Assembly: GCF_033153115.1 (NCBI RefSeq)
Contig: NW_026889805.1
Location: 19,096,001-19,160,000 of the forward strand
DNA from: Saccostrea echinata
Taxonomy: Eukaryota
Direction: 5' to 3'
DNA length: 64,000 nucleotides
Position numbers and translations under genes: made by a program. The stretch's first letter is position 1. Every line of letters begins with the position of its first letter. Below the pieces are notes generated by a model. It saw only the letters and a program-made list of their open reading frames with translations, made no database searches and was not told where the DNA came from. Of the stretch, positions 3,002 to 11,329 are shown piece after piece.

Positions 3002-3886
3002 TTGAAAATAATTTCATGGAATATAAATTGTGGATTTTCATCAAAAATTAAGGATAAGAGTTTCAAAAATTTCATTCTTACTTATGATGTTGTCCTTTTG
3101 ACCGAATGTTGGTTAGAAAAAGATTATCATGGATTTATTGAAGGTTTTGATTCCTATTACTTTCCTAGACAAAAGAGTAGAAGTATACAGGGAGGGGGGT
3201 CAGTGATTTTGATCAAGAAAAAATTACATAAAAATGTTTTGTTAAAAACCAGTATGACTCAATTTTATGGTTAAAAATCCAGGATATATTTTATAATGTA
3301 GGAGAAGACATATATATGGGATGTGTTTATATTCCCCCTAATAATTCTTCCTTTTACCGTCAGTATGAGTGTGATATTTTTTTGGAATTGGAGACACAAA
3401 TAAGCCATTTTTTGTCGAAGGGTAAAGTTATTATTTTGGGAGATATGAATACCAGAACCTCCACTAAAGATGAGTTTATTACGGATGATGTACTCCAAAA
3501 TGAGATACTTAGGAACGTAGCCGAAATATTGACCTATGAAGTAGACTCACCATTACCTATGCGTGTTAACCCAGATAAAGTAATTAATGACTTTCGAACA
3601 AAATTACTTTCTTTGTGCAAATCAAGTGGATTACGAATACTTAATGGACGTCATAATCTGGCAATGGATAGAGATTTTACTTTTATGGAAACAAGAGGCA
3701 TGAGTGTCGTTGACTACTGTATTTCAACCCCTGACGTGTTTGAGGTAATATTGATAAATTTATTGTGTCAAATTTCACAACTTTCTCTGATCATGCCCCA
3801 TTACACCTTTAAAATAATTTCTAGTAAAACGGACAAGCAGCAAAAATCTTATACTAAATGTAACAACGACAGTACACAGAATTTAA
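3002..3886 (+). pseudogene. LINE ORF2 APE-type endonuclease domain, frameshifted
   Basis: IISWNING-like start, LTECW, YIPP, GDMNTRT, SVVDY, SDHAP motifs. Confidence 0.85.
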
Positions 3887-3970
3887 CAGGTTGGGCACAG
3901 TTCTTTTTTCGGGGAAGTATTACTATAAAACGGGATAATTCCTCTTTTCAGTAATGAAATATATCCCATA
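3887..3970 (+). repeat. Left TIR
   Basis: caggttgggcacagttcttttttcggggaagtattactataaaacgggataattcctcttttcagtaat... is the reverse complement of 11241-11324, with 2 mismatches in the outer ~68 bp. Confidence 0.95.
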
Positions 3971-4879
3971 AACGCGTAACTTTTACACAACTTCCGCCTA
4001 TCGACGTGTTTTCGAAGAATATAAGAAGTGCAGAAATGTCTTTACATGTGGTAAATAGTTATTGTCTGCATGACACATTTTACTTTAAAACCTTTTTAGT
4101 TGTGGCTGCATTTCACTATGATAAAGTAAAATTTACCCCTGGGTTCTCAAGAAAGACATTTTTCGGCTCCTAATGATATTATAATTCAGTTAACTTACGT
4201 TAAACTCTTAAATTCAATGATCCATCTGAAACAATACTCCTTTGGTAGCCATTTGCAATGTTCTTTCACTTTGAAAAATGTCTAGTCCAATCAGAAAGCG
4301 CAAAAGATCATGCAAGATTGCAGATTTTGTATGGAAGGTCTAATGTGTTTGAATTCAATGCATGATTTGTCATAAATTGTTAAGTCATACATGGAATAAT
4401 TCGATGCGTATTTCTCACACCAAAGGATTAATTATCACAACTGATTATCAAGTGCATTTATATTATTATAATATTATATTATTAATTTTTGTCACTTTTA
4501 GTTCAATACTTTAACTGTTTTGTCTTGTATTATCCTATTCTACTACATCTATTTTTCAACATAGACGTAATTCTATAGATCAGAATAAAGCAGAAAAGAC
4601 AAGAAAACTATAATAACACATTTTAAGAACATTAAAAAAAAAAATACTGTAGATCACTAAACAAAATTCACGAATAAAAATTCAGAATGAAACTTTGCAA
4701 TCGGAGTCAAAATTCATTTCTATGCTTATTATAGTGATAAATGTTAACAACAAAGTACAGATGTGCTACACAGATTATACAGTCTGATAACAATATGGTC
4801 ACAAAGAGTTAAGAAAATACTGATTAATATTTAAAAAAAAAGGAAAAGAAGTACAATCAATTATATATTATTTGAGCAG

Positions 4880-6116
4880 AAAAAAATCAGTAAATCAGGC
4901 AAGACAAGCCTGGTGTCCATCGGTGAAAACAAACACCCCAAACGAAAAAGTGTTTCCATTAAGAAAGCGGCAAATATAGCCAAAGCTTTTAGTACAAGGA
5001 AAGACACCATGTTTTCAAAGGTAAGCTACTCCTTTTGTAACTTTGTTAGAAAGTTCACAAGACCATCTTTTTTGCCATTTTTAACCTTTTTCCACTCATT
5101 TTGTGATGTTACGTCCATTTCACACTTTTCAATTTTTTCTTTTAATTGTGCCTTTGTTAAAGTTTTAATATTTTCTGCATTGTCTCTTTGTTTTTGGGAA
5201 ATTGTAATTGGCTTGGGTCGAAATCTTTTTAAAAGGGAATTTGTGCGTGAAACTTCCTTTGCATAATTATGGAAATTGGCCTCGCATTGCTCTGCATGTG
5301 AGAAGTCGTATGTCCGGGGCCAATCTGTCGCCACACATTCCCTCCAGCTTCTCTGATAATAAGATGTTACTCTCCTTGATGATTGACCTTTGAATTAAAA
5401 ACCATAAACACAATAATTTTTAATATCGAACATACACAGTGCTAGATAAATATATAAAACATGAAGAAAAAAAAATAAATTTAAAAAAAATACGAAAAAC
5501 ACACCTAAACCTGACAACTTCATCCTTAATTCCATGCACATAAGTGTAGTTCCCATTATCATCATCCGACACTCCAAGGATATTTATCATGTACTCGTGA
5601 ATCTATATAGAAAAATATATATTTTATATTGTAGGCAAAAGAACTAGAAGTCGCGACAGGGGCCAAAGTGAAGATGTCCATAAAGGCTCCGTCGGGCACA
5701 AAGTATATCTATGGAGAGGTACGGGATGTTTACAATACAGGTTATTTGACCAATACCACCCCCCCCTTCAAATTCCAAATGTTTGTTTCTTATTTATTAT
5801 TTGTTTTTATTTGTTTTTGTGGATGTATTTGTGCTGTCCCTCTGTTTTGTTTTCAGTTAATACGTCTGTGTTTTATTTTATTTTTATTCCACGTTCTGTT
5901 TTTGTACCTGTGGTTGTTTATCTTTTGTATACACAGGATGAATCAAGTTTTTCCTTCCCACGGGCGAGGTGGATTGGGTGTGACGGGGAGAATAAAAGGA
6001 AAAACTGTGATTATTGGTGTCGTTGCCATTGCCTTGGCTTTAAAGCCAAAACAAAGGCCGCTCTTTCCAGGTTGCAGTGGTTCTGCCCAGCCCATCATGC
6101 ACTAGCATTGCAGTGA
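4880..6116 (+). CDS. Transposon-borne MADS-box-like + PHD/CW-like zinc finger protein; exons 4880-5020, 5635-5718, 5937-6116; possible first exon 4036-4050
   Basis: GT-AG, phase-0 joins give IKKAANIAKAFSTRKDTMFSK|AKELEVATGAKVKMSIKAPSGTKYIYGE|DESS...WIGCD-x7-CDYWCRCHC...WFCPAH. The first part aligns to the SRF/MADS pattern FSKRKxGxxKKAxELSxLTGxxV...SxxGxxYxF. Confidence 0.7.
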
Positions 6117-9100: not shown

Positions 9101-10871
9101 GTACATTTAATAAATTGAAATTGAAATAATTTACCAGCTGATATTATTTTTACACCAGTTTTGCTGCCTGTTAAGAAATATGTCAGGACATTTTGGAAGA
9201 ACGAGAGGGGGGCCACATATTTCCTATTTGCAAGAAAATAAACGGCATCAACAGCCTTCGCCATCTCCAGCTGACTATCCATATTGCCACCAATACCCTC
9301 CAAAAACGACAGAAGGACTTGATTCCTGTTCCTTAACCAGTCTATATCAAAAAAATATCATGAGAAAAAGAGGGGGGATGAATGTTGATTTAAAAAAAAA
9401 ATTGAATTTCATTTATGTATAACATATGTTTTTGTATTATACCGGCGAGTTTAAAGTCCTGTAGGAAGATATCGTTATTGTAGAAATTTCTCTGATCAAA
9501 TGCATCTTTACTAATGGCGGATGAGATCTTCCTACCAATACAGTTGGATATTCTTGAAAGGTCCTCCTCTTTAAAATTACCCCTTTCAATAGCTTTCAAT
9601 ATTTCTTCGCAAGAAATAGATGATGTTGGTTCTGTTTATAAAATCAATTCACATTCATATTAAAATAGGAAACACCATGCAAATTATTTATTTTGAACAA
9701 GAATTTTTCACTTTATACTGAACATATTTTATACCATTTAGTTTTCTTTTTTTATTTTCCATTAAGTTTTTTTCCGCATAGTCGGCGCACCCTTCACATA
9801 CATAAACGGCTCTATCTGACAGGGCTCCGCAACCAAGAAGAGTCTTAATGACATCTTTCCTTATTTTTCTGGTATTTACGCGGTGGATACGGTTACATGA
9901 ATCCTCGTTGTTACTGCAATATTCCTCATGCCTTATGCAGCTACACGAAAGTTTCCGTTTTGGAGGTATTCTCTTAATAATAAATAAATAAATAAATAAG
10001 AAAAATATTATTTATAGAGTATATGGTACTATTACTCAGAAGTAAAAATATGCCACAATATAGGTTTGTGGATTTAAATACGTGTTTTATTCGAGTCAAA
10101 ATTGAAATCAAGAAGATAAAAAATATATATCATAGAATAGTACTCTAGATACAGATAAATCATATAATTATAACAACATCCGTATCGTACATTGGACAAA
10201 ACCTTGTAGGGGGTGGGTGGGGTCAATATTCAACATTTTTCAACGAAATGAAACCATATGTGCATAGAAAAGAAATTAACCAGAAGTGAAAAGAAGACCT
10301 GAATATATAACTTTCATGATTTTTAGTCTCAATTTTCATTTGAGGCACTTCTGGCTTTGAAATATTTAAAACATTTATTAATTAAATTTTGAAAATGTAC
10401 ATGAGGAAAAATTAATTTTTTTCCCCAAAATTTCTCTAATATTTTGGTGTTGGGAAACAAAGTTTACCCCCCCCCCCATCCCCCTTGATGGGAACTTAAT
10501 TAAAAATGATTTTTTATAAATGATACTAAAGCTTACACGAAGTGAGAATGAATCTTATCCTCCCCCTTTCCCAATGAATTAGAAAATGAGGCATTGAAAA
10601 TCTCCTATATAACTATTTTCTAAAAAACATATTCAAACTTTGTATTAAAAAATATTATAGAGTTCCTAATTTAATGTAAATATTATTTTACATGTCTATT
10701 CAGGGAATTGATGATTGCTGGAATTTTGATCAATGATAAAAATCTATTTATTTATAAAATGATTCATAGCATAAGTATAGATATATACAGTATACACAAA
10801 TATTACCGTTTCAATACAATTTATGTACGAACTAATAATTTCCTTTTTTATTGTCTGTATTAGCTTTCCAT
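5026..10871 (-). CDS. Multi-exon putative DDE transposase (~850 aa), Academ/DUF6589- or Transib/RAG1-like, slightly degenerate
   Basis: Exons 10807-10871(?), 9735-9972, 9443-9631, 9135-9341, 8830-8936, 8444-8658, 8247-8321, 8014-8110, 7248-7482, 7092-7161, 6943-7004, 6332-6858, 5505-5602, 5026-5387 with matching splice phases. Motifs: CSCIRH...CEGC, FIDNNQV, IGCDALPY, CPAC..H, PGLGHYEIN, DHHKSWQ, RAGVRRNN, EGGDFVLESFKRNVK. Confidence 0.8.
7545..7995. mobile_element. Short MITE(s) with GGCCCGTAG...CTACGGGCC ends inside a transposase intron
   Basis: Inverted termini at 7545, 7921-7935 and 7983-7995; related ends at 21855-22063 and 55554-55776. Confidence 0.6.
9012..9096. repeat. (TA)n microsatellite in a transposase intron
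   Basis: About 42 TA units. Confidence 0.95.
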
Positions 10872-11240
10872 ACTTTTTAAGTATTCCCAAACATCAAATA
10901 TTAAAAGAACAATACTTGGATCATAGAGTCACGTGATCTTTACTTCCTGTGAATGATGCGGAACTGAGAAGTAGAAGAACTAATTCTCGGTAAATGTTTC
11001 TTCATAAATCAATTCAAATTCAACTCAGAAGTGAAAAAGTCAATGCCTATACTAAAGTACTTACGAATTTCACTGCTTATCACCAGTTTCTTCTTAACTG
11101 CAGCTATGAAGGACTGAAAATTTTGGCTAGGTAATCTATTTTTATAGAGTAAATTCGCGCCACATCGCATTTCTCGTGCACTTTTACTCAGCTGCACGGG
11201 ATTTTTACCTTTCTTGAAAAATAACAACAAATTCCTTGGA

Positions 11241-11324
11241 TATGGGAATGTTTTTATTACTGAAAAGAGGAATAATCCCGTTTTATAGTAATACTTCCCC
11301 GAAAAAGGAACTGTGCCCAACCTG
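11241..11324 (-). repeat. Right TIR
   Basis: Reverse complement of 3887-3970. Confidence 0.95.
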
Positions 11325-11329
11325 TTTAA

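Follow-up and report, generated by a model that had tools for sequence, protein, structure and literature searches.

The window analysed here, a 64,000-nucleotide stretch of the Saccostrea echinata contig NW_026889805.1, holds a DNA transposon at positions 3887-11324 that starts with CAGG, ends with CCTG and interrupts a long interspersed nuclear element (LINE). It carries two spliced genes on opposite strands, a DDE transposase and a partner in which a MADS domain is joined through a linker to a PHD finger. Based on comparisons with other copies and relatives combined with structure prediction, we consider it likely that the element is a defective copy of a cut-and-paste lineage with CAG..CTG ends, 5-bp target site duplications (TSDs), a DDE transposase distantly related to Academ and a captured MADS-PHD partner.

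The terminal inverted repeats (TIRs) match at 77 of 84 bases, including 66 of the first 68. Removal of the element and one TSD in silico yields an open LINE frame that joins the endonuclease and reverse-transcriptase halves, and the initial annotation, which had described these repeats, an exact 5-bp TSD and the restored host frame, is borne out on all three. The LINE endonuclease frame is closely preceded by a 261-codon coiled-coil open reading frame (ORF; 1952-2734), probably LINE ORF1. Taken alone, the window copy is parsed equally well with ACAGG ends and a 3-bp TTA TSD; this parse is ruled out by other copies, whose TSDs resolve the ambiguity in favour of 5 bp. The genome was searched with the left end of the element (40 scored matches, 30 of them retrieved, and three further stretches). 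Of the 20 distinct copies that are non-autonomous and retain both ends, the 5-bp TSD is exact in 18 and has one mismatch in two, with informative duplications including CTAAA, TTAGA, TTTAT, AATAA, ATGAA and TTTAG; 16 of the 20 are miniature inverted-repeat transposable elements (MITEs) of ~960 bp with a mutual identity of 92-98%. The target sites of these 20 copies are AT-rich and biased to TTNAA, with TTTAA not fixed, and the orientation rule used in this tally inflates T at positions 1-2. L048 is a miniature copy of 183 bp with TTGAA as its TSD, and the right end in L049 shares 90% identity with that of the window element.

Coding relatives show CAG ends and the same TSD length. The genome holds 52 matches to the transposase, and 36 transposase-bearing regions were inspected. 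Two-ended CAGG coding elements of 6.2-9.4 kb, window copy included, show an exact 5-bp TSD in 11 of 12 cases (TTTAA, TTGAA, ATAAC, TTTAA, ATCAT, TTTGG, CTTAA, ATTAA, CAAAG, TTTAT and TTAAA; imperfect in C33c), as do all four CAGT elements (9.2 and 17.6 kb; GTAAA, TTATA, TGCAT and TAATT), and the termini are CAGG or CAGT in 12 of the 12 elements listed. Six copy pairs are 98.8-99.8% identical with unrelated flanks; since such near-identical copies sit at unrelated sites, several sister families have moved recently. The best transposase relative of the window copy is 62% identical, and the genome search found no closer full-length copy. Nested inside one member of its family (L083:695-5488) is an element of 4.8 kb that has long TIRs, CAC ends and a TSD of 8 bp, and the TIRs of the C54 element span 274 bp at 99.6% identity.

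The lineage extends beyond this genome. The C76 protein, encoded without introns, has homologs labelled Saccostrea cucullata (94%), Mytilus, Ruditapes, Owenia, Mercenaria and Gigaspora rosea, and a profile search with the transposase returned 5449 clusters at E <= 0.001, the weak tail of which probably includes Academ proper, and 709 at 1e-30. Relatives with a single gene are found in Gigaspora and in contigs from soil metagenomes. Both CAGT ends are present at three of 30 metagenome loci, with an exact 5-bp TSD in L115 and one mismatch each in L103 and L108; these are 3.2-4.1-kb elements with no partner match, and L108 and L115 cluster with the Gigaspora protein on the tree. In viral contigs, none of 73 pattern matches to the lineage was confirmed.

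Splice models of both genes draw on the sequence and on relatives (Table 1). The transposase is modelled as 13 minus-strand exons from 9972 to 5026 with a 744-residue frame, predicted catalytic residues D, D and E and a conserved His; all 12 acceptors are AG, and the donors are GT with one exception. This donor, after 6943, is AT in the window copy and GT in the orthologous C9. The last exon of the window copy shifts frame near 5310, and its PHD finger lacks the first CxxC and one His. The mutated splice donor, the frameshift and the truncated PHD finger suggest that this copy is probably inactive. A transposase intron contains short repeats (7540-8010) matching dispersed sequence near C54, probably a small nested element.

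Table 1 Features of the element and its host LINE, in window positions.
Feature	Positions	Strand	Basis
Host LINE endonuclease half, interrupted	2972..3881	+	Exo_endo_phos_2 E 2e-4
Left TSD TTTAA	3882..3886	+	sequence; 5-bp length settled by other copies
Left TIR, CAGG start	3887..3970	+	77/84 match to right TIR
Candidate first partner exon, tentative	4278..4337	+	ATG and GT donor, phase fits next exon
Partner exon, first MADS half	4880..5020	+	AG/GT boundaries; 54% identical to P0207 residues 5-52
Last transposase exon, within partner's MADS intron, frame change near 5310	5026..5387	-	family HMM match; two-frame match to relatives' tails
Transposase exon 12, within partner's MADS intron	5511..5602	-	AG/GT boundaries, open frame
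Partner exon, second MADS half; phase-0 intron before it as in host SRF	5635..5718	+	intron comparison
Last partner exon, PHD finger without first CxxC in window copy	5937..6116	+	PHD comparison with relatives
Transposase exon, helical insertion and predicted catalytic Glu (codon 6430-6428)	6332..6858	-	Glu from sequence
Transposase exon, donor AT in place of GT	6943..7004	-	exon model, C9 comparison
Transposase exon, conserved His motif (codon 7153-7151)	7092..7161	-	exon model, consensus
Transposase exon, second predicted catalytic Asp (7419-7417), optional C2H2 finger	7248..7482	-	zf-C2H2 E 0.001
Transposase exon	8014..8110	-	exon model, relatives' loci
Transposase exon	8247..8321	-	exon model
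Transposase exon	8444..8658	-	exon model, relatives' loci
Transposase exon, first predicted catalytic Asp (8841-8839)	8830..8936	-	exon model, tree alignment
Transposase exon	9135..9341	-	exon model, relatives' loci
Transposase exon	9443..9631	-	exon model, relatives' loci
Transposase exon, N-terminal CxCxxH...CxxC zinc finger	9735..9972	-	conserved in 18 homologs
Candidate first transposase exon, tentative	10944..11005	-	ATG and GT donor only
Right TIR, CCTG end	11241..11324	-	TIR comparison
Right TSD TTTAA	11325..11329	+	sequence
Host LINE reverse-transcriptase half, degraded	11330..13221	+	RVT_1 E 4e-12

Both genes are present and convergent as initially annotated, but in the window copy they are not simply tail-to-tail, since their exons interleave: the last two transposase exons lie inside the MADS intron of the partner, and the last two partner exons lie inside a transposase intron. 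The last transposase exons are likewise placed between two MADS exons in C54, C1c (three copies), C16b, C16c, L086 and L091, where scoring in C16c covered the first MADS exon alone and that of C16b is inverted. Tail-to-tail pairs are found in C14, C9, C33a, C58, C16a, C25, L083 and L093. A convergent gene pair is also the layout of AcademH. In the C16b element the first MADS exon (L066:7342-7431) is on the opposite strand to the remaining partner gene, suggestive of a local inversion, and the contig region also holds a short interspersed repeat. In the C54 element, tandem ~150-bp units occupy the space between the last two transposase exons, within the MADS intron (L056:5900-7300).

The closest partner protein, P0207, is labelled MADS-box domain-containing in Magallana and matches SRF-TF at E 3e-5 and PHD at E 1e-3, neither of which reaches the curated cut-off. 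When the MADS domains of six elements were combined with P0207 into a profile and controlled with 300 shuffles each, the host SRF scored 53 bits and partial MEF2 exons 31-36 bits, shuffles reaching at most 8.9. A GT-AG phase-0 intron at the same MADS position is shared by six of six elements and the host SRF, and the MEF2 loci are without it. In relatives the PHD finger is complete, with the invariant Trp and W-x-H (PF00628 E 1e-5 in C9), and its best Protein Data Bank (PDB) matches are BPTF, KDM5B and ALFIN; from likeness to BPTF and KDM5B, it would be expected to bind methylated H3K4. A special kinship to RAG2 is not supported, RAG2 being outside the top 60 of 71 PDB matches and the PHD of the genome's RAG2L scoring 21 bits, in the generic range. 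In the ESM Atlas the partner has no usable feature match, and its structure rows fall below a template modelling (TM) score of 0.5.

The initial annotation had asked whether the partner accompanies the transposase in related elements, and it does. MADS and/or PHD exons lie opposite the transposase strand in 25 of 36 own-genome loci, as scored with partner hidden Markov models (HMMs) built from some of these loci; the remaining 11 include CAGT elements, the C33b group and fragments. On a tree of 106 sequences with 25 elements placed, 13 partner-bearing elements and four database proteins group in a single clade (support 0.996). When the genome was searched with P0207, 19 loci were found, 15 of which adjoin a transposase match. 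The partner is kept across families with 40-62% transposase identity. Its dN/dS is ~0.12 compared to 0.17 for the transposase in the sole pair where neither gene is saturated, and five of five pairs have a pN lower than pS, with local alignment favouring conserved codons in these estimates; as judged from these substitutions, the partner is under purifying selection.

P0116, a window-type homolog that shares 35% identity with the window protein, was modelled with AlphaFold from a 98-row alignment (predicted local distance difference test, pLDDT, 93.6). Its fold is that of a DDE enzyme of the RNase H type and includes a large helical insertion; a single-sequence model of the C76 protein (pLDDT 35) was not used. 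The P0116 model is most similar to the P element (Z 12.4-12.8, 327-360 residues aligned, root-mean-square deviation 5.4-6.3, 9% identity), followed by Hermes (Z 9.4), ISCth4 (8.5), HzTransib (7.7) and RAG1 (up to 7.6). Foldseek returned nothing at E <= 0.001, with P element, ISCth4 and RAG1 as top rows, and the fold searches barely covered residues 1-180. Published systems were compared through passages retrieved by term, also from PMC12730594, PMC4455052, PMC10629977 and PMC5751038. The consensus after the second D is GxGH and not the C/DxxH typical of the P / hAT / MuDR / Kolobok / Dada group (PMC9587614); the CxxC after this residue is part of the optional C2H2 finger, absent in P0116, P0118, P0127 and P0088. 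An H(3-4)H before the catalytic Glu was not seen in the lineage consensus, the Pfam scans gave no hAT domain match, and no THAP domain was detected in the lineage transposase.

At the sequence level, lineage homologs match DUF6589 with E down to 2e-9, and in the ESM Atlas the core is nearest to a mollusc cluster without a name (0.95) and then to a DUF6589 cluster (0.85, a lead only). The genome has 105 DUF6589 matches. Ten regions were retrieved and compared with AcademH features (PMC10045372, PMC10799480); they look like AcademH, because RecQ-like helicase ORFs are present in all ten and TIRs with 8-10-bp TSDs in five. Two different AcademH-like elements, each with transposase and helicase ORFs, lie within 20 kb at L139-L140 (G000:C25:25293501-25313500). 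Aligned with hhalign to AcademH-like proteins of this genome, the lineage profile reaches P 91.8, E 7e-7 locally (Glu region) and P 97.2, E 8e-11 globally, with the second Asp, the His and the Glu paired. The core is detectably homologous to AcademH-type (DUF6589) transposases, as a distant relative, and the earlier view that the element fits no superfamily that can be named stands in part: its features depart from those published for Academ, Kolobok, Chapaev and Transib/RAGL, but its core has recognisable kin. No helicase or nuclease accessory was found among the window ORFs, and XPG_I matches lie elsewhere.

The connection to RAG proteins is found in the sister clade. CAGT elements and many homologs carry a complete RAG1-type N-terminal zinc finger, with E 2.4e-10 to mouse RAG1 102-277, 1.1e-9 to the NZD structure 21WB and hhalign P 98-99% to this genome's RAG1L. 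The window element lacks such a finger; that of its clade is the shorter CxCxxH...CxxC, not significantly similar to NZD/Chapa (E 0.04, P 1.3%). In a PDB profile search with the lineage transposase, the N-terminus was the only part of RAG1 that was matched. The Chapa/NZD finger has been stated to be confined to Chapaev and RAG1/RAG1L (PMC4411706; bioRxiv 10.64898/2026.01.24.700457), and passages of the latter, a 2026 preprint, name Chapaev as the sole lineage consistently retaining it. A whole finger on an Academ-like core, as in the sister clade, bears on the origin of the RAG1 N-terminus. Downstream of the transposase, CAGT-clade elements also carry another ORF, arranged in tandem with it (L051:2116-2799, L052:2481-3008, L096:9245-9754); the C1 and L096 versions are homologous (E 8e-9), and the tail of the Owenia protein P0029 looks similar. 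This ORF is MADS-like by eye, without support from hhalign (P 2.5% or less). The genome further contains a 1011-codon open RAG1L frame at two loci (L157, G000:C5:332305-337155; L158 and L164:885-2228), the C5 copy adjoined by a convergent 448-codon kelch-PHD RAG2L frame; RAGL pairs have already been reported in Saccostrea (PMC7204232).

We propose that the lineage operates using the following mechanism. The transposase would bind the TIRs, excise the element and integrate it at AT-rich targets, with the joints staggered by 5 nt, and it may move the ~960-bp MITEs in trans. One clade would have taken the MADS domain of a host SRF-type gene, along with its intron, and fused it to a PHD finger, and the captured MADS-PHD gene would have been retained under selection for an accessory protein. 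In this protein, the MADS dimer may bind or bend DNA, while the PHD finger, of the H3K4me-reader type, may bring the complex to chromatin. Harbinger Myb proteins serve their transposase as helpers. By analogy to these and to RAG2, we lean towards the partner being a transposition cofactor that would bind DNA and chromatin for the transposase; that it regulates the element's own transcription instead is possible, and we hold it to be less likely. A separate superfamily with a RAG2-like cofactor can be put forward only tentatively; if true, the lineage would rank as a third carrier of the RAG1-type finger, and possibly its donor, and would rely on a hijacked transcription-factor domain to be targeted to chromatin.

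Several observations speak against parts of this interpretation and have to be weighed with the alternatives. For the Academ kinship, similarity of the N-terminal half is weak (P 12%, E 0.0025; P 1.2% against a single sequence), the global alignment leaves the first Asp unpaired, the comparison is confined to AcademH-like proteins of this genome, and the tree has an unreliable root with a poorly aligned, AcademH-like outgroup only. The lineage might be a separate superfamily, sister to Academ, kept apart as Transib and Chapaev are. Its own TSD length and CAG ends recur in bivalves and soil metagenome contigs, protein homologs are found in an annelid and Gigaspora, the profile search gives 709 clusters at E < 1e-30, none of the 105 DUF6589 matches is a lineage locus, and long branches separate it from AcademH on the tree. 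This assignment is nonetheless doubtful in our view, given the profile homology and the motif order common to AcademH; two classes of TSD and two accessory enzymes are already found within Academ (PMC10045372), so that a third variant fits there. There is some chance, well short of even, that the lineage is already catalogued with the same mechanism, among Repbase/Dfam Academ entries, the 100 Academ consensuses from bivalves curated in Martelossi 2023 or, in the case of the finger-bearing clade, as N-RAG-TP: the core is Academ-related, bivalve-rich Academ elements have been reported via HMM (PMC10294476), and the description of N-RAG-TP in PMC8355894 fits the sister clade. However, the passages of PMC10045372 list Academ TSDs only as 3-4 bp (AcademX) and 9-10 bp (AcademH), the preprint names Chapaev alone as the consistent finger carrier, and no MADS-bearing or 5-bp Academ lineage is described in the literature searched. 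A relative of Transib/ProtoRAG or Chapaev with RAG2L replaced is already largely refuted and now highly improbable. The 5-bp TSD, the convergent genes, the PHD finger, the CA..TG ends and the RAG1-type finger of the sister clade are compatible with it, but the ends are CAG and not CAC, no kelch domain is present, PF12940 matches only RAG1L loci in the genome and no lineage transposase, the RAG1L core (a single-sequence template) has no hhalign match to the lineage profile (P < 1%), the fold is nearer to the P element than to RAG1 or Transib, and the RAG2L PHD scores no better than generic ones. Of the ProtoRAG echo first noted, the parallel in layout remains, and common descent of core or PHD finger does not.

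The role and origin of the partner are subject to similar objections. MADS identity to SRF (11-16/46) is barely above that to MEF2 (9-14/46), and the SRF origin of the domain hence rests mainly on the intron. Sixteen CAGG ends of MADS-bearing elements contain five CArG-like sites compared to 6.6 expected, and since CArG boxes are not enriched there, the idea that the MADS domain binds the TIRs lacks support. Four of the 19 P0207 loci have no nearby transposase match, with none within 8 kb in the one inspected. Movement with 5-bp TSDs is also seen in relatives where no MADS-PHD gene was detected (C76, C1, L115), and hence the lineage as a whole does not require the partner. The MADS-PHD gene may be a passenger, or may only regulate or shield the element with no part in the transposition reaction, a reading these last three observations suit but which we judge rather unlikely. 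Its retention across divergent transposases, the purifying selection and the interleaved exons exclude a neutral passenger, not a regulator.

Two further inverted structures lie elsewhere in the window. At 17054-18784, 126-bp inverted arms (85% complementary, CCGG start, no clear TSD) are nested in an inverted pair at 17011-18852, and an inverted repeat of 1.4 kb at 57719-61778, 88% identical and flanked by TA, possibly represents a large foldback or MITE-like element.

In conclusion, the element represents a real lineage, related to Academ, that makes 5-bp TSDs and in the window clade keeps a MADS-PHD partner under selection; it is probably an undescribed variant, in agreement with the earlier suggestion of an undescribed lineage: no description of a 5-bp Academ-like lineage or of a MADS-PHD transposon gene was found in the literature searched by term, Repbase and Dfam being outside this scope, and 12 of the 33 supplements of PMC10294476 gave no matches. 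In its working it resembles two-gene elements of the Academ or RAGL type, without matching the complete definition of either. Academ TSD length has been proposed to follow the accessory enzyme (PMC10045372), an idea that is put to the test by another TSD length, the third, in combination with a third kind of accessory gene. With near-identical copies at different sites, sister families offer substrates for testing if a transposase is guided to chromatin by a PHD cofactor, which is the task of RAG2.

Among known systems, the P element is the best structural match, but differs in its 9% identity, in C/DxxH as opposed to GxGH and in the THAP domain, which was not detected in the lineage. P element TSDs are 7-8 bp long. 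hAT5 shares the 5-bp TSD, whereas the lineage has no hAT domain match and resembles Hermes only at Z 9.4. Chapaev, which encodes one protein, is alike in the Chapa/NZD finger of the sister clade and in CA..TG ends, and differs in the H(3-4)H before its Glu. It has, moreover, CAC ends and 3-4-bp TSDs (PMC4079192). Kolobok differs in its 4-bp TTAA TSD and RR..YY ends (PMC9587614). Transib/RAGL elements share the 5-bp TSD, but their termini begin with CAC (PMC7204232) where those of the lineage are CAGG/CAGT; in ProtoRAG/RAGL, the core is unrelated by sequence, RAG2L has kelch repeats where the partner has a MADS domain, and the N-terminal finger differs from that of the window clade. N-RAG-TP of Aplysia (Panchin and Moroz 2008, as related in PMC8355894) is a molluscan transposon that is RAG1-like at its N-terminus only and, by that description, may belong to the sister clade; the passage mentions no MADS-PHD partner. 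For Academ, compared here in the form of AcademH, TSDs of 3-4 or 9-10 bp and a helicase or XPG nuclease contrast with the 5-bp TSD and the MADS-PHD partner, while the homologous DDE core with the same motif order, the CA..TG ends (in four of five AcademH-like elements of this genome), the convergent second gene and the occurrence in both animals and fungi are common to the two.

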